DNA of 5,277 nt from Candidatus Saganbacteria bacterium (GCA_026387835.1 JAPLKZ010000007.1:1-5277), one strand, 5' to 3'; counted from the first letter of the stretch, positions 60-5,260 are shown. Numbers and translations are program-made. The notes: generated from the letters alone by a model not told the origin.

Positions 60-131
<72 letters not shown>

Positions 132-132
<1 letters not shown>

Positions 133-280: not shown

Positions 281-862
281 ATGGACAAACCCGTTGTTCT
301 GGTGGTTGATGACGAAAAAGACGCGAGAGACACCATTTCCGAGGTCCTTTCAAAAGAATGCGAGGTTGATACAGCCGACGGGGGCAAGGCCGCGCTTTCA
401 AAATTAAATGAAAAGAAATACCACATCGTTCTTCTTGATATCAGAATGCCTGAAATGGACGGAATGGAAGTGCTTAAAAAGATAAAGGGACAATATAGCG
501 GCCCGAACAAGATCGAGATCATCATGCTGACAGCCTTTGATGAGGCAAAACTGGCGTGGGAAGCCTCAAAGCTCGGCGCGTCTGACTTTATCACAAAGCC
601 GTTCAGGAATGAAGACCTTATCTTCAGGGTCAAACTGGCGGCAAAGAGGAAAATGGACGACGATCTTTTTCTGCAAAAGGTCATGCTCGCCAATCATATC
701 TTTGTCGACAGCTCAAAAGAAGATCCTATTTTTGCCAGGAGAAAGCTCATTCTTGATGCGCTTTACAACAAGAACAACCAGGATATTGACAAAGTGAAGC
801 TCGAAGACCTGGAAGCGATACGCGGCGGAAAATGGGACAATATAGAACCGGAAAAAATCTGA
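281..862 (+). CDS. Response regulator: CheY-like receiver domain plus a ~70-aa C-terminal region of unrecognised type (no obvious HTH)
   Basis: Receiver signature, numbered from M281: DD (D10, D11) in VLVVDDE, phospho-acceptor D53 in IVLLDIRMP (GAT 437-439), T84 in IMLTA, K106 in ITKPF. Start 281 is preferred because GGAGG at 267-271 lies 9 nt upstream. The longest ORF starts at 251 and has no SD. Stop is TGA at 860-862. Confidence 0.9.
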   Translation: MDKPVVLVVDDEKDARDTISEVLSKECEVDTADGGKAALSKLNEKKYHIVLLDIRMPEMDGMEVLKKIKGQYSGPNKIEIIMLTAFDEAKLAWEASKLGASDFITKPFRNEDLIFRVKLAAKRKMDDDLFLQKVMLANHIFVDSSKEDPIFARRKLILDALYNKNNQDIDKVKLEDLEAIRGGKWDNIEPEKI

Positions 863-867
863 TTTTT

Positions 868-2895
868 CTAGATGGACGGGAAAGTCATCTTGAAAGCCGT
901 CCCTTTCCCAATTTGAGACGATACTTCTATCTTTCCCTTATGGTCTATTATATTTCTATGCGCGATGGATAAGCCGAGGCCTGTCCCTTCGGCCCTTGTG
1001 GTATAGAAAGGCTCAAAGATATGGTCAACCTGTTCCTTCGTCATTCCTGACCCCGTGTCCGCTATCTCAATTTCAACATTGTTTTCACTATCAAATGATC
1101 TCGCCTTTAAAACCCCGTCTTTTCCCGTAAAATCAAGAGAGTTCTGCATTATATTAAAGAACGCTTCGGAAAGCATGACGGGATTTGCCATTATCTTATT
1201 TTTCGCATCCAATTCCTTTTCAACTTTTATACTTTTATCCTTGATACGCCCTTCCAGCATCGATAAAGTATCTTCAATGACCTTGTTGATATCGGTCGTT
1301 TCCATCTCTTCAGATTTGGCCTTCGCGAACTTGAGCATGCGGTTGATTATAGATAGTATCCTGTCTATTTGTTCAGGCATCATTCTCGCATAGTTAGATA
1401 CATATTCTTTGTCGTCAATTCTTTCAAGAACTGTCTCGGATTTTGACCGGAGTACAGTCATCGGATTCCTGATCTCATGGGCGAGTCCCGCTGCAAGAGT
1501 ACCAAGCGCAGCCAATCTAGCGTTATCTTCCGCGGCTTTCTGAGCGATCTTAACTTTTTCCTGCTCGGTGGCAAGATCGACCTTTACCCGCTCGTATGGT
1601 TTTATACGCTCGATCACGACCGCTATCTGTGGAGCAATGACTTTCAAAGCGTCTAACTCTTCATCCCTGAAAGCATCTTCCGAAAGCTTTTTGCCGACGT
1701 ATAGCAGAGATATAAGCTCGCCTTTAAACAAACACGGGACAATATACTCGATATCTTTTTTCTTTTCTTCATCTTTCAATTCTTCCGGCAGTTCATCAAA
1801 AACAGCAGGCTTTTTATTTTTGGAATAATACTCTGCCTCTTTACCGGACAGATCGCCCTTCTGTCGAACGTCCAGCATTTTCAATTCCATTTTTTCAACT
1901 CTTGCCTCTTCCAGAACAGCTTTCAGATCTTCCATTCCAGCAACATACGATAATTTTTCGGAAAAGTAGGCTATGGTGTCGGTAAAATCGTACTTTCCTT
2001 TCAAGAATAATTTGTCCGATGAAGTTTGGATAAACATGCGGAGTCGCTCGAAAGCAAAGCCGACAAAGACACCGTAAGCGACTGTCATCGACAAAAAGCC
2101 GATATCAATATTCGGTGAAACGAAATATCTATAGGGTATTGCGAATGCAAAATAAAACAACCCTAATATTATCATCGTCAGCCCGTAGGCAATGGATTTG
2201 CTGATGATAACCGAAATGTCCATAAGGCGGGTTTTGGTGATGGCGTAGGCGATTATTGAAACTAAAACAAGGGAATTATAAGGTCCAATCCATATATAAC
2301 GATAATTCCCTGCCAGAATCAGATATAAATTAAAATATGTTCCAACAATACTTGTAAGTAAAGTGGCAAGAAAAATATAGCTCAACTGCGTTTTTTGTAT
2401 TCCTTTGGATTCTGTGGTTGATATAAATATTCTGTACAAACCTATTAGCACATAACTTGAGAAATATATAGCGAACAAAGGATATAAATAACCCAATATA
2501 CTTTCTTTTCCCCACGAACGAACAATAATTTCTCTAATAAATGCATCAGGAATAAAAACCCCTACTAGAATTAACAAATTTGGCAAATGTAAAGCAATCT
2601 TTTTAAAATTATTCAGCTTATATCCTGTTAAAACTAGGGAAAAATGCAGAAAAGTGCTGGCAATGAAGCCTGACGTGAAAATAAACTCTCTGTTCCAAAA
2701 CAGTGAAAGCGTCGTATTTTCACTTATCCCAAACATGAATATCCCAAGAGTCCACAAACCAACAGATAATGTCGAATAACCAAATATTCTGGTGCTTTCT
2801 TTCAGGGGGGCCCTGAAAAGTAATATGTAAGCCAAAATCACATCAAAAGCAAACGCTATAAAAAGAAAAATATTTATAAGAGTATTTGAAGTCAT
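868..2895 (-). CDS. Membrane sensor histidine kinase: N-terminal 8-9 TM sensor region, GAF-like middle region, HisKA and HATPase_c
   Basis: About nine hydrophobic segments fall in residues 1-285. The H-box is GLAHEIRNP with H473 (codon 1477-1479). N-box is FFNIMQNSLDF. G1 is IADTGSGM. F-box is IFEPFYTT. G2 is GTGLGLSIA. The start ATG (2893-2895) overlaps the upstream stop as ATGA. Confidence 0.95.
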   Translation of the reverse strand: MTSNTLINIFLFIAFAFDVILAYILLFRAPLKESTRIFGYSTLSVGLWTLGIFMFGISENTTLSLFWNREFIFTSGFIASTFLHFSLVLTGYKLNNFKKIALHLPNLLILVGVFIPDAFIREIIVRSWGKESILGYLYPLFAIYFSSYVLIGLYRIFISTTESKGIQKTQLSYIFLATLLTSIVGTYFNLYLILAGNYRYIWIGPYNSLVLVSIIAYAITKTRLMDISVIISKSIAYGLTMIILGLFYFAFAIPYRYFVSPNIDIGFLSMTVAYGVFVGFAFERLRMFIQTSSDKLFLKGKYDFTDTIAYFSEKLSYVAGMEDLKAVLEEARVEKMELKMLDVRQKGDLSGKEAEYYSKNKKPAVFDELPEELKDEEKKKDIEYIVPCLFKGELISLLYVGKKLSEDAFRDEELDALKVIAPQIAVVIERIKPYERVKVDLATEQEKVKIAQKAAEDNARLAALGTLAAGLAHEIRNPMTVLRSKSETVLERIDDKEYVSNYARMMPEQIDRILSIINRMLKFAKAKSEEMETTDINKVIEDTLSMLEGRIKDKSIKVEKELDAKNKIMANPVMLSEAFFNIMQNSLDFTGKDGVLKARSFDSENNVEIEIADTGSGMTKEQVDHIFEPFYTTRAEGTGLGLSIAHRNIIDHKGKIEVSSQIGKGTAFKMTFPSI

Positions 2896-3923
2896 GGCTT
2901 CTTAATTACCAGGAAAATATTCATCTGAGTTTCTTTTTCAAATTCGATCTCGATCGATTTGTTGATTAAGTTCTCGGTAAGTTTTAACATATCTTCCTTA
3001 GACCGGCGGTAGATATACCATTCCCCGAGTATTTCCGTATATGCTATAAAGCTATCTTTGTCAGAAACATTGCCTATTACCAGCTCGTCGCCTTCATTTA
3101 TTTTGCCAAATAATACCTCTATCATTTTTGATGCAATTTTATTGTTGAAATAATCTATAAGGCCGGAACAATATATTAGATTCTGGTTGTCCAGAACCCG
3201 ATCTATTTTTCCGCTCTTTAAAAGTGTTCTTATATCCGAATTGATGTAATTAACTCTGAACTTCTTGCCAGTTTTACCCTCAGCAATATAAACTTGATTT
3301 TTAACGTACTCGAGAGACTGGTTTTCAAAATCCAAACAGGAAAATACTGCCTTTTCCGCGAGAGGGTTTTCTTTTAAAATTTCAATTAACTCTATAGCTG
3401 GCCCAGATGCGATGCTGGCAATTTTGGCATCCGGTTTTATTTTTAGGATATTATTGATGTGTTCTTTGTAGAAATCTTTTCTGTTACGATTCGCTATTGC
3501 GGTCGGAACTCTCATCGAATACCTATGGATGAATTTTCCGTAGGTTGTATCTCCTTCGTAGCCGTTATCATACAAATAGAGCATTGTGATATAATCGCCC
3601 GCATAACCTAGAGGCTTTTCGTAAACCCGTTTATTATAAGGAGAAACATCAAAAAGCTTAACAAGTTCCTCCTGAAAATATTTTTGATGTTCTTTCGCTG
3701 CTTCCAAGGGCAGGTTGTTGTATATTTCCCAAATATTGGCAAAAAGATTGTCGATATTTTTAAATATTCCGTCTTTGTTTTTTTCGATTAAATATATCTG
3801 CTGTTGAATGGTTGGAGAGGTCTTGTCAAAAGCGTCAAATTTCTGTTTGACAGGCAATAAAAGTGATTTTAGTTTCAAAGTGTCATCAACAAAATTTTGG
3901 TCGAGAATTAATGTTTTATCCAT
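2892..3923 (-). CDS. Class I SAM-dependent methyltransferase with a helical N-terminal domain; tentatively PhcB-like (methyl-ester signal synthase family)
   Basis: Rossmann-fold MTase pattern. Motif I-like KIASIASGPAIE is at 3390-3422. An acidic beta2 end is seen in FSCLDFE. Then come NYINSDIRTL and NLIYCSGLIDYF (the GL-DY type motif). The N-terminal domain has KPLGYAGDY and AIANRNR. A G-rich SD (GGGGGA) lies 6 nt upstream of the ATG. The start abuts the upstream stop as TAAATG. The subfamily assignment is from memory of motifs, not from a search. Confidence 0.7.
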   Translation of the reverse strand: MDKTLILDQNFVDDTLKLKSLLLPVKQKFDAFDKTSPTIQQQIYLIEKNKDGIFKNIDNLFANIWEIYNNLPLEAAKEHQKYFQEELVKLFDVSPYNKRVYEKPLGYAGDYITMLYLYDNGYEGDTTYGKFIHRYSMRVPTAIANRNRKDFYKEHINNILKIKPDAKIASIASGPAIELIEILKENPLAEKAVFSCLDFENQSLEYVKNQVYIAEGKTGKKFRVNYINSDIRTLLKSGKIDRVLDNQNLIYCSGLIDYFNNKIASKMIEVLFGKINEGDELVIGNVSDKDSFIAYTEILGEWYIYRRSKEDMLKLTENLINKSIEIEFEKETQMNIFLVIKKP

Positions 3924-5072
3924 TTAATTTCCCCCAAATACTCTATTAAAATCAACAGTATTAATGGATTGTTTGACATTTCTGAAACTTGCCATCCGTA
4001 TCCCTGCCTTTTCCATCTCATCCCACAATTTAAGCACATAACTTTCGGAGATGCGGTTGACATGGTCCTCATTGTATTCTCTCATCCAACAGAGCAGAAG
4101 AAGCTCCGCAAAGCAGCTGTAAACCTCGTTCTCTTTTCTTAGACCGAAATCACAGTTTACATTCAATCCGTCAACTTCGGCCACTCCCGATTCAATAACG
4201 ATAACATCTTCACGCTCATAAGGCACTTTAACCGAAACATTTCTTGGCTGTGCGGCGTCGATAATTATTGATTTTGTTTTAAGATGTTTCGATCTCACTA
4301 TCACGCCGGGAGTATTTGTCACTGTTAACACAATATCGGCATTTTTGATATCGCTGATATCAAAAGAAACCACGATATTTTTGTTGCCGCTTTTCTTTTT
4401 AAGTTCCTCGCCCAGCGTTTTTACGTCTTCTTTGTTCTTGTCAATTAAAGTTATGTCGGAGAAGTATTTTAACAGAAGTTTACTGCTCATTGAACCGACA
4501 AAACCGGCGGCACCCACGACAGCCAATTTAACTTTTTCTTTATCCAATCCGGCTAAGTCCGCAGCCTTAATAACGTTTTTTGCGGCGATTACAGCCGAGA
4601 AAGCGTCGCCATTTGTTATGGACATTTTAACTTTACCTTGCAGATATGCTCCGTGATCTGTAACGATTGGTACAAACGCACCAAGACCTAACAGCTTAGC
4701 ATCAAGCTTTTCGGAAAATTTTGCCGCTTTCAATATCTTTGTTCTGGCTCTTTTTTCGTTTAAAAGCATCATCCGGGTGGAAAGCGAACAAAAAACCACC
4801 CATCCGTCAACCGTGCGTCCGTCTCTGCCTTTATAACCTGTGATCTTAGATAATATTACCGGAGGATGAAGCTTGCTTATGCCTTTTAAGAACCATTTCG
4901 GAGCATTATTGGCGAACGGATACTTCCTTGCGATATCGGGAAGAAGCTCAATCGGATGGGCCAAAAAGACATATTCACCTTTACCGATTAATGCCCTTAT
5001 AAACGATTTTGGTAAAAACGGGATTAGGATGTCCCTAATCGTTAGAAGTATTTGCTTTGTATTTTCTATCAT
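3924..5072 (-). CDS. NAD(P)-binding oxidoreductase of the acyl-ACP reductase (AAR) / COG5322 family
   Basis: By eye it is colinear with Synechococcus elongatus AAR. TNGDAFSA matches TGNTHTAY. KLAVVGAAGFVGS (Rossmann GxxGxxG, 4494-4514) matches TVAVVGATGDIGS. VYSCFAELLLL (C320, codon 4113-4115) matches the catalytic-Cys motif MFACFAEAMLL. VFLAHP near the N-terminus matches GLIGH. It carries about 33 extra aa at the N-terminus. Confidence 0.8.
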   Translation of the reverse strand: MIENTKQILLTIRDILIPFLPKSFIRALIGKGEYVFLAHPIELLPDIARKYPFANNAPKWFLKGISKLHPPVILSKITGYKGRDGRTVDGWVVFCSLSTRMMLLNEKRARTKILKAAKFSEKLDAKLLGLGAFVPIVTDHGAYLQGKVKMSITNGDAFSAVIAAKNVIKAADLAGLDKEKVKLAVVGAAGFVGSMSSKLLLKYFSDITLIDKNKEDVKTLGEELKKKSGNKNIVVSFDISDIKNADIVLTVTNTPGVIVRSKHLKTKSIIIDAAQPRNVSVKVPYEREDVIVIESGVAEVDGLNVNCDFGLRKENEVYSCFAELLLLCWMREYNEDHVNRISESYVLKLWDEMEKAGIRMASFRNVKQSINTVDFNRVFGGN

Positions 5073-5091
5073 ATAATAATATTTTGTTTAT

Positions 5092-5120
5092 ATTATACTC
5101 ATAAATACCGCGATTGTCAT
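5092..5120 (-). promoter_or_regulatory. Sigma70-type promoter of the three-gene operon: ATGACA (-35, 5115-5120), 17-nt spacer, TATAAT (-10, 5092-5097)
   Basis: Read on the - strand the sequence is ATGACA-atcgcggtatttatgag-TATAAT. The -10 is perfect, the -35 is 5/6, and the spacer is 17 nt. The -10 ends 19 nt upstream of the ATG at 5072, which implies a very short leader without an SD. Confidence 0.5.
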
Positions 5121-5188: not shown

Positions 5189-5247
5189 CCCCCTCGGCTC
5201 GCATAAGTTCGCTCGGGGCGATCCCCCTCGACTTCGCTCGGGGCAAG
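5189..5247. repeat. GC-rich short-repeat block. CCCCCTCG occurs at 5189-5196 and 5223-5230. TTCGCTCGGGGC occurs at 5208-5219 and 5233-5244.
   Basis: Direct reading. It shares CCCCTCGAC and GCTCGGGGC with the block at 1-59. Both blocks end in CAAG immediately before tRNA-derived sequence. Confidence 0.6.
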
Positions 5248-5260
5248 CCTGCTTGGCGCA
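5248..5260. repeat. Right copy of the 13-bp direct repeat CCTGCTTGGCGCA; attR-like
   Basis: Exact match to 120-132. No further tRNA similarity upstream of it. Confidence 0.75.

Follow-up and report, generated by a model that had tools for sequence, protein, structure and literature searches.

A chimeric HisKA_7TM kinase encoded with an AAR-like reductase and a PhcB-family methyltransferase in Candidatus Saganbacteria: a candidate enzyme-coupled signalling module

The 5,277-nucleotide stretch of DNA considered here as a whole (the window) comes from a Candidatus Saganbacteria bacterium (GCA_026387835.1 JAPLKZ010000007.1:1-5277), and at protein level its identity with a Candidatus Saganbacteria MAG is 100%. 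It encodes on its minus strand a predicted acyl-thioester reductase, a methyltransferase related to PhcB and a polytopic histidine kinase, next to a small response regulator gene on the plus strand (Table 1). An initial annotation, made by reading the sequence alone, had described the three minus-strand genes as a coupled operon for the synthesis and sensing of a lipid-derived signal. Its open reading frames (ORFs) and both of its gene junctions were recovered at the same coordinates by ORF listing and direct reading. The hexamer GGGGGA lies 6 nt 5' of the methyltransferase ATG at the TAAATG junction. The ATGA overlap of methyltransferase and kinase genes is also found in L004 and L008, and 4-nt overlaps and abutting genes are seen again in L004, L008, L014 and L016 (L-numbers refer to the comparison loci and P-numbers to the comparison proteins of this analysis). 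The three genes are arranged as would be expected for translational coupling.

The promoter proposed in the initial annotation is the top-scoring promoter-like match of the whole window. Such matches are not in excess, 16 being found in the window against 12.1 +/- 3.4 in shuffled sequences, and a consensus match alone is weak evidence for a promoter at this site. The assignment is nevertheless supported, because both hexamers and the short leader are conserved before the orthologous reductase genes of L014 and L171 despite different upstream genes. This leader, which runs over about 12-19 nt to the reductase ATG (5072), has no Shine-Dalgarno sequence. One conserved promoter and the lack of any intergenic space make it likely that the reductase, methyltransferase and kinase genes are transcribed as one unit. 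The receiver-domain protein that had been associated with them is indeed encoded next door to the kinase, but its gene is convergent with the kinase gene, with 5 nt between the two stop codons, and therefore lies outside the operon. A scan of the window against Rfam returned the tRNA alone, with no riboswitch match in the leader. A terminator scan gave nothing over the shuffle expectation and nothing between the convergent kinase and regulator genes.

Table 1. Features of the window, with coordinates counted from its first nucleotide.
Feature	Coordinates	Strand	Basis or remark
tRNA-Lys(CTT)	60-132		
Response regulator gene, 193 aa; receiver domain and ~70-aa tail	281-862	+	ORF listing; PF00072 E 1e-29
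Kinase gene, 675 aa	868-2895	-	ORF listing
Kinase residues 228-675, transmitter core of the reductase-linked lineage	868-2214	-	PF00512, PF02518
Kinase residues 1-227, HisKA_7TM sensor domain	2215-2895	-	PF16927 E 6e-9; methyltransferase-linked type
Methyltransferase stop/kinase start overlap ATGA, 4 nt	2892-2895	-	Direct reading of sequence
Methyltransferase gene, 343 aa; predicted PhcB-family class I SAM-dependent methyltransferase, short form	2892-3923	-	ORF listing; homology, motifs, fold
Reductase stop/methyltransferase start junction TAAATG	3921-3926	-	Direct reading of sequence
Reductase gene, 382 aa; predicted AAR-like acyl-thioester reductase, COG5322 superfamily	3924-5072	-	ORF listing; sequence, motif and fold comparison
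Sigma-70-like promoter ATGACA-17 nt-TATAAT	5092-5120 (5120->5092)	-	11/12 consensus positions

The reductase carries an NAD(P)H motif of the GxxGxxG type, GAAGFVG (G187/G190/G193), and a predicted catalytic cysteine, Cys320 (codon 4113-4115), which is aligned with Cys294 of the AAR of known structure (PDB 6jzu, E 2.3e-16). Across 41 reductase homologues C320, G187 and G190 never vary, and G193 hardly does. Foldseek matched the AF2 model (pLDDT 94.5) best to carmabin TAD (TM 0.75) and to AAR 6jzu (TM 0.73/0.81). In this model the 382-aa protein has the AAR/thioester-reductase fold, in keeping with the AAR-family identity and the catalytic C320 that had been proposed. The profile searches suggested at the same time gave a mixed result: features of the COG5322 superfamily are present, but TIGR04058, the AAR equivalog model, scores 71.9 bits, far under its cut-off of 449.7. 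The N-terminal region of PigE matches the reductase at E 7e-30, better than the AAR model does. Conversion of thioesters to aldehydes by AAR-like domains is also documented outside cyanobacteria, since the N-terminal region of PigE was reported as an AAR-like thioester reductase (PMC8341465) and a similar role was proposed for KecF (PMC6498172). The window reductase has in common with AAR (TIGR04058) and with the PigE, TamH, KecF and carmabin TAD domains the fold (TM 0.73-0.81), the catalytic Cys and the GxxGxxG NAD(P)H site. The same chemistry would be expected of it, from acyl thioester via a Cys-acyl enzyme to an aldehyde. Known AAR-like members pass this aldehyde to a partner protein. Unlike them, the window reductase has no aldehyde-deformylating oxygenase or aminotransferase partner (no oxygenase gene of this kind lies beside it in the window or in L001), its conserved partner is a HisKA_7TM sensor protein, and some of its relatives bear an N-terminal PilZ domain. 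The known roles of AAR-like reductases lie in pathways to hydrocarbons and alkaloids rather than in signalling. The NCBI annotation starts the protein 36 aa later (346 aa, P0121), the additional region corresponding to 4965-5072 of the window. The ATG at 5072 is supported, because homologues of 380-382 aa align over 99% of the query and because the promoter and leader are conserved.

Pfam and NCBIfam scans of the 343-aa methyltransferase returned nothing significant, and a single-sequence search of the PDB returned noise only. The protein has 249 database relatives, many of which carry the PhcB KEGG name 'EF 3-hydroxypalmitic acid methyl ester biosynthesis protein'. In BLASTP, 274 aa of it align with P0221, a PhcB orthologue from Cupriavidus, with 28% identity (E 4e-36). 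P0221 is encoded in a PhcB-PhcS(MASE8)-PhcR(REC-HK)-PhcQ(REC) locus, and such Cupriavidus orthologues, reached via a Paraburkholderia plasmid homologue, served as the PhcB reference. The motifs of the methyltransferase are KPLGYAGDY (103-110), the motif I SGPA, D198 and G254/D257/Y258, of which KPLGYAGDY, GPA and GLxDY are common to PhcB; G174 of motif I (codon 3402-3404), P175 and D198 are invariant or nearly so among the homologues. The AF2 model (pLDDT 95) is that of a class I S-adenosylmethionine (SAM) methyltransferase. Its best PDB matches in Foldseek are small-molecule O- and C-methyltransferases and methyltransferase domains of polyketide synthases (PKS), and the family profile matched class I methyltransferases in the PDB. 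By homology and motifs the protein is a true member of the PhcB family, as the initial annotation had supposed. Its alignment starts at residue 190 of P0221, so that the N-terminal domain (about 120-190 aa) of the 463-aa PhcB is missing. A PhcB-family region (31% identity, E 2e-23) is also part of an annotated type I polyketide synthase gene on an Enterobacter ludwigii plasmid (NZ_CP134637.1 46713-47450, also NZ_CP134634.1), which suggests that methyltransferases of this family may act on carrier-bound acyl chains. Some other members carry N-terminal PilZ, cyclic-nucleotide (cNMP)-binding or receiver domains.

The kinase combines a seven-transmembrane (7TM) sensor domain, HisKA_7TM (36.5 bits for a gathering score of 28.6), with HisKA (45.5 bits) and HATPase_c (83.3 bits) domains. 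Its H-box histidine is His473 (codon 1477-1479), and its sequence also shows G1 and G2 boxes. About nine hydrophobic segments appear in the hydropathy profile, two of them after the 7TM domain, and the region 228-675 includes the segment where homologues give weak GAF matches. The parallel with PhcS that had been drawn for the sensor does not hold: PhcS has a MASE8 domain, and a comparison by hhalign, made in case the 7TM domain were a divergent PhcS/MASE8 domain, detected no relationship, with a probability below 1% for the 7TM set against the PhcS-type set. In L105, four tandem genes (108-2837) directly upstream of an AAR-like reductase gene code for standalone HisKA_7TM domains of ~225 aa, without kinase part.

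Sliding-window identities divide the kinase into two segments of different affinity. Residues 1 to ~215 are 50-85% identical to the methyltransferase-linked kinases of L004, L008 and L012 and 8-31% identical to the kinase of L014. For residues ~228-675 the relation is reversed, with 58-98% identity to the reductase-linked kinase of L014 and 10-40% to the methyltransferase-linked kinases. On these identities the window kinase is a recombinant whose breakpoint falls at the end of the 7TM domain. L014 is also matched by the reductase (84%), the regulator (65%) and the promoter of the window. The split of the kinase and these further matches show that the methyltransferase gene and the adjacent 7TM-encoding part replaced the resident 7TM domain, and so methyltransferase and 7TM domain entered a reductase-kinase-regulator operon as one cassette. 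The opposite event in the L014/L171 lineage is formally possible, and methyltransferase and 7TM domain co-vary either way. In a small set of 37 7TM domains, crudely clustered on BLAST scores rather than by phylogeny, the domains group largely by the enzyme encoded directly upstream, that of the window falling with the methyltransferase-linked ones. At all three loci where reductase, methyltransferase and kinase genes form a trio, the 7TM domain belongs to the type that goes with the enzyme encoded beside it.

Surveys of gene neighbourhoods place both enzymes beside sensor kinases well beyond the window. Close relatives of the methyltransferase (45-55% identity) have a HisKA_7TM kinase directly downstream of them in six lineages, with no reductase and usually with a convergent small regulator downstream. 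In a seventh lineage (P0011, L010) two enzyme genes lie between methyltransferase and HisKA_7TM kinase. Of 80 PhcB-family loci from species-level genomes, 59 have a polytopic kinase gene whose start lies between -193 and +33 nt of the methyltransferase stop codon, as judged from ORF calls that use the first start codon and can over-extend. These genomes belong to the Verrucomicrobiota, Planctomycetota, Myxococcota, Nitrospirota, Omnitrophota and Alpha- and Gammaproteobacteria. Most of the kinases concerned resemble PhcS, often as a fusion of PhcS and PhcR with a receiver-kinase protein encoded behind it, and HisKA_7TM partners accompany the short methyltransferase subfamily. The nearest relatives of the reductase, in L171 (89%) and L014/L015 (84%), directly precede a HisKA_7TM kinase without methyltransferase, and the Omnitrophota locus L018 shows the order FadL channel, reductase, 7TM kinase. 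In a metagenome scan of close reductase relatives, a HisKA_7TM protein was encoded directly downstream in 13 and within 4 kb in 18 of the 28 evaluable cases; for distant or fused relatives the linkage was found in 3 of 34. Both enzyme families are thus, each independently, habitually encoded directly upstream of polytopic kinases. The pairing of enzyme and kinase expected by comparison with phcB-phcS is therefore conserved, but with another type of sensor.

The trio as such is not one conserved unit, the nearest relatives of the reductase (89% and 84% identity) lacking the methyltransferase and those of the methyltransferase (49-55%) lacking the reductase. It recurs in L016/L017, with a reductase 72% identical to that of the window and a methyltransferase and kinase of another subfamily, and in L019, with the gene order methyltransferase, reductase, kinase. 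From these comparisons, the trio has been assembled in at least two further lineages, from methyltransferases and kinases of different subfamilies and with two arrangements of the genes, and that of the window is not ancestral, being a recent recombinant. Other enzymes that act on acyl groups also precede 7TM sensors. In L016 the gene immediately before a HisKA_7TM kinase codes for an alpha-oxoamine synthase of the CqsA superfamily, and an SDR-type thioester reductase, UbiE-/Methyltransf_11-type methyltransferases with a FeeM/LuxI-like GNAT, and a PlsC-type acyltransferase (L127) were found elsewhere. L010, L012 and L016 hold differing cassettes at apparently the same position beside fabF-fabK-acpP-fabG.

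Several related arrangements came to light in these surveys. In L127 (3369-9255) an apparent operon runs from the PlsC-type acyltransferase through an AAR-like reductase, a Methyltransf_11 protein and a FeeM/LuxI-like protein (Autoind_synth 44.9 bits, over the gathering score) to a HisKA_7TM kinase. L100 (2-5883) and L099 have a PilZ-fused AAR-like reductase between a 7TM-GAF-GGDEF-Trans_reg_C protein and a 7TM-GAF histidine kinase. With the PilZ, cNMP-binding and receiver fusions, the reductase and methyltransferase families both seem to be under second-messenger control. Operons of phcB-phcS-phcR type are common in Verrucomicrobiota, Planctomycetota, Myxococcota and Gamma-/Alphaproteobacteria (L022-L098, e.g. 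L045 2884-7004 and L036 5557-10742; L169 6001-10906). They code for a PhcB-family methyltransferase of ~470 aa, a receiver-kinase hybrid and a PhcS-like polytopic kinase that shares the SPYYAGLNL motif; a single protein of about 880 aa often combines PhcS and PhcR.

The receiver domain of the response regulator includes Asp53 (codon 437-439); an alternative start exists at the ATG at 251, and gene callers choose 281. The 65% identity with the regulator beside the L014 kinase extends over the full length, and a small convergent regulator lies next to the kinase in five lineages, including L004, L008, L009 and L014. No Pfam family matched the C-terminal tail (695-862, residues about 125-193). 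The output of the regulator is probably protein-protein contact, since it is without DNA-binding domain. Its tail is kept in the L014 orthologue, including the terminal GKWDNIEPEKI, and is missing from the regulators of 157-169 aa beside methyltransferase-linked kinases.

These observations are best accounted for, with a probability put at roughly 55%, if the locus is an enzyme-coupled two-component signalling module that follows the synthase/receptor logic of Phc, in which both the sensor domain and a partner enzyme are new. Because the 7TM type follows the adjacent enzyme and both moved together, enzyme and 7TM domain would form a specificity pair of the kind known for signal synthases and receptors. 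Taking the methyl esters of PhcB as a model, and PhcB-PhcS as the direct precedent on the methyltransferase side, the methyltransferase would make a small hydrophobic methylated compound derived from an acyl chain. This compound would partition into the membrane and be bound by the co-inherited 7TM domain, and binding would switch the autophosphorylation of His473, followed by phosphotransfer to Asp53 of the regulator. The reductase would convert an acyl thioester of acyl carrier protein (ACP) or coenzyme A (CoA) to an aldehyde, via a Cys320 acyl-enzyme and NAD(P)H; here it may supply or modify a precursor, or make a second product left from an ancestral reductase-kinase system. We infer both what the enzymes make and how it would act on the kinase.

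A synthase gene beside the gene of a polytopic sensor kinase is a known concept from the Phc, Cqs/Lqs and Agr systems. The likeness to Phc of Ralstonia and Cupriavidus lies in a homologous methyltransferase directly upstream of, and coupled to, a polytopic kinase, and in a regulator without DNA-binding domain. PhcB products are methyl 3-hydroxy-fatty-acid esters (methyl 3-hydroxymyristate or methyl 3-hydroxypalmitate). The window differs from Phc by its HisKA_7TM sensor, which has no detectable homology with MASE8 of PhcS, by the absence of the PhcB N-terminal domain and by the additional AAR-like reductase in the operon. It has no downstream PhcR-type receiver-histidine-kinase hybrid or PhcQ; the only regulator is the convergent receiver protein with its ~70-aa tail, outside the operon. 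The host phylum is distant from the Betaproteobacteria. In the CqsA/CqsS and LqsA/LqsS alpha-hydroxyketone systems, an acyl-condensing synthase is likewise encoded beside a multi-pass kinase sensing a lipid-like product; in contrast, no alpha-oxoamine synthase is present in the window, and the likeness is one of logic.

Several points weigh against a signalling module of this kind. No ligand of HisKA_7TM is reported in the literature found, the coverage of which is incomplete, and in this literature the domain appears in a sensor-domain census without ligand. The members of both enzyme families that are partnered with HisKA_7TM are known from sequence alone, and the analogy with Phc would rest on the methyltransferase and the gene order, as the sensor domain is not homologous to that of PhcS. 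The standalone proteins of L105 would evidently mean that a HisKA_7TM domain can act without transmitter. The original 7TM partner of the reductase has been replaced, which may have uncoupled this enzyme functionally. Since an aldehyde offers no carboxyl group for methyl esterification, reduction followed by a PhcB-type esterification fails chemically. Finally, adjacency suits enzymes that are controlled by the kinase, or cooperate with it, equally well.

This last point leads to a different division of roles, in which the 7TM kinase senses an external or membrane lipid, or the state of the membrane, and the reductase and methyltransferase constitute the response. The enzymes would serve, for example, in fatty acyl detoxification or remodelling or in membrane-lipid homeostasis, with the operon autoregulated via the regulator and a signal not made by the enzymes. 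Adjacency alone cannot tell a synthase from an effector. A fab operon is the immediate neighbour in L010, L012 and L016, a FadL-type uptake channel gene lies upstream in L018, and a PlsC-type acyltransferase belongs to the L127 operon, all of which would suit this division of roles. However, the 7TM type co-varies with the upstream enzyme, and methyltransferase and 7TM domain moved while the kinase core and regulator stayed; such joint movement fits ligand-receptor specificity and fits a generic effector less well. The homologous PhcB is moreover a signal synthase in Ralstonia and Cupriavidus (PMC8578825, PMC10653808), and other partner enzymes come from autoinducer-synthase superfamilies, CqsA-like and LuxI/FeeM-like. 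A purely responsive role of the two enzymes is for these reasons held to be unlikely, with a chance that is still appreciable.

The initial annotation had gone further than an enzyme-coupled signalling module and supposed that both enzymes together make a single molecule. They would act serially on one acyl chain, giving for instance an O-methylated hydroxy-aldehyde as the sole ligand of the kinase. The co-transcription and coupling of the two enzyme genes speak for such a pathway, and the trios assembled independently in L016/L017 and L019 keep the idea alive; in L127, moreover, a reductase stands together with a LuxI/FeeM-like enzyme and a methyltransferase of another kind. Against this, each enzyme has nearest relatives that manage without the other one, the trio of the window is a recent recombinant, carboxyl methylation of PhcB type and thioester reduction compete for the same carbon, and the sequence names no intermediate. 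Cooperation of reductase and methyltransferase is possible, but a serial pathway to one ligand is judged improbable.

The methyltransferase could also modify the kinase or the regulator instead of a small molecule, in an adaptation like that of CheR. CheR is among the PDB entries matched by the family profile (E 1.6e-7), and precomputed matches to the CheR SAM domain exist for some homologues, but the match is limited to the generic SAM-binding core, and the best fold matches are the small-molecule and PKS enzymes mentioned above. The N-terminal PilZ, cNMP-binding or receiver domains of relatives mark regulated enzymes, and the gene is tightly linked to that of a membrane receptor domain; yet one member of the family forms part of a type I PKS, the product of PhcB is a fatty-acid methyl ester, and the equal linkage of the reductase to 7TM kinases would be left unexplained. 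Protein methylation therefore has a slim chance of being the function. The idea that unrelated genes came to be packed together by chance in a compact genome, for which the frequency of gene overlaps in small AT-rich genomes could be invoked, is made very unlikely by the surveys, in which the pairings recur across phyla at dozens of independent loci, and hardly needs to be entertained.

Beyond the window, these comparisons suggest that lipid-derived signals may be widely made and sensed by means of matched cassettes of lipid enzyme and sensor. The HisKA_7TM domain occurs widely as a sensor, and its conserved coupling to acyl-modifying enzymes points to acyl-derived compounds as a candidate class of ligands. 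The PhcB-family methyltransferase/kinase operons occur in many phyla, whereas the literature found places Phc-type signalling in the Betaproteobacteria only, the phc cluster being described as restricted to this group (PMC10653808). The chimeric kinase represents a natural experiment in which enzyme and sensor domain are inherited as a specificity unit, of use both in explaining the diversification of signalling channels and in the design of orthogonal synthetic sensors. Within its incomplete coverage, the literature search found no description of HisKA_7TM as the sensor partner, of an AAR-like reductase as kinase partner, of a cassette exchange of enzyme and sensor domain or of Phc-like operons outside the Betaproteobacteria, and nothing relevant on signalling in Margulisbacteria or Saganbacteria.

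A more general proposition can be put forward tentatively, as something less than an even bet: HisKA_7TM domains may form a broad family of receptors for self-made signals derived from fatty acyl chains, each with an exchangeable synthase cassette, new channels arising by swaps of enzyme and 7TM domain. If so, the cassettes would comprise the AAR-like reductase (fatty aldehydes), the PhcB-like methyltransferase (methyl esters), the alpha-oxoamine synthase and the LuxI/FeeM-like acyltransferase, swapped with their 7TM domains onto existing kinase cores, and the window would be one such case caught. Fatty aldehydes would join the known classes of autoinducers, and Phc-like quorum sensing would extend to Margulisbacteria/Saganbacteria, Omnitrophota, Nitrospirota and other uncultured phyla.

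The borders of the window present a feature of another kind. The last 13 nt of the tRNA-Lys gene (CCTGCTTGGCGCA, 120-132) are repeated exactly and in direct orientation at 5248-5260, just past the operon promoter, with a spacing of 5.1 kb that brackets all four protein-coding genes. The chance recurrence of a given 13-mer in 5.3 kb is estimated at about 8e-5. This direct repeat looks like an att-type duplication left by integration at a tRNA gene, and no integrase gene is present within the window. GC-rich CTCGGGGC / CCCCTCGA motifs at 1-59 and 5190-5250 flank both copies of the repeat in an otherwise AT-rich window. The related modules of L014 and L171 occupy different genomic contexts.

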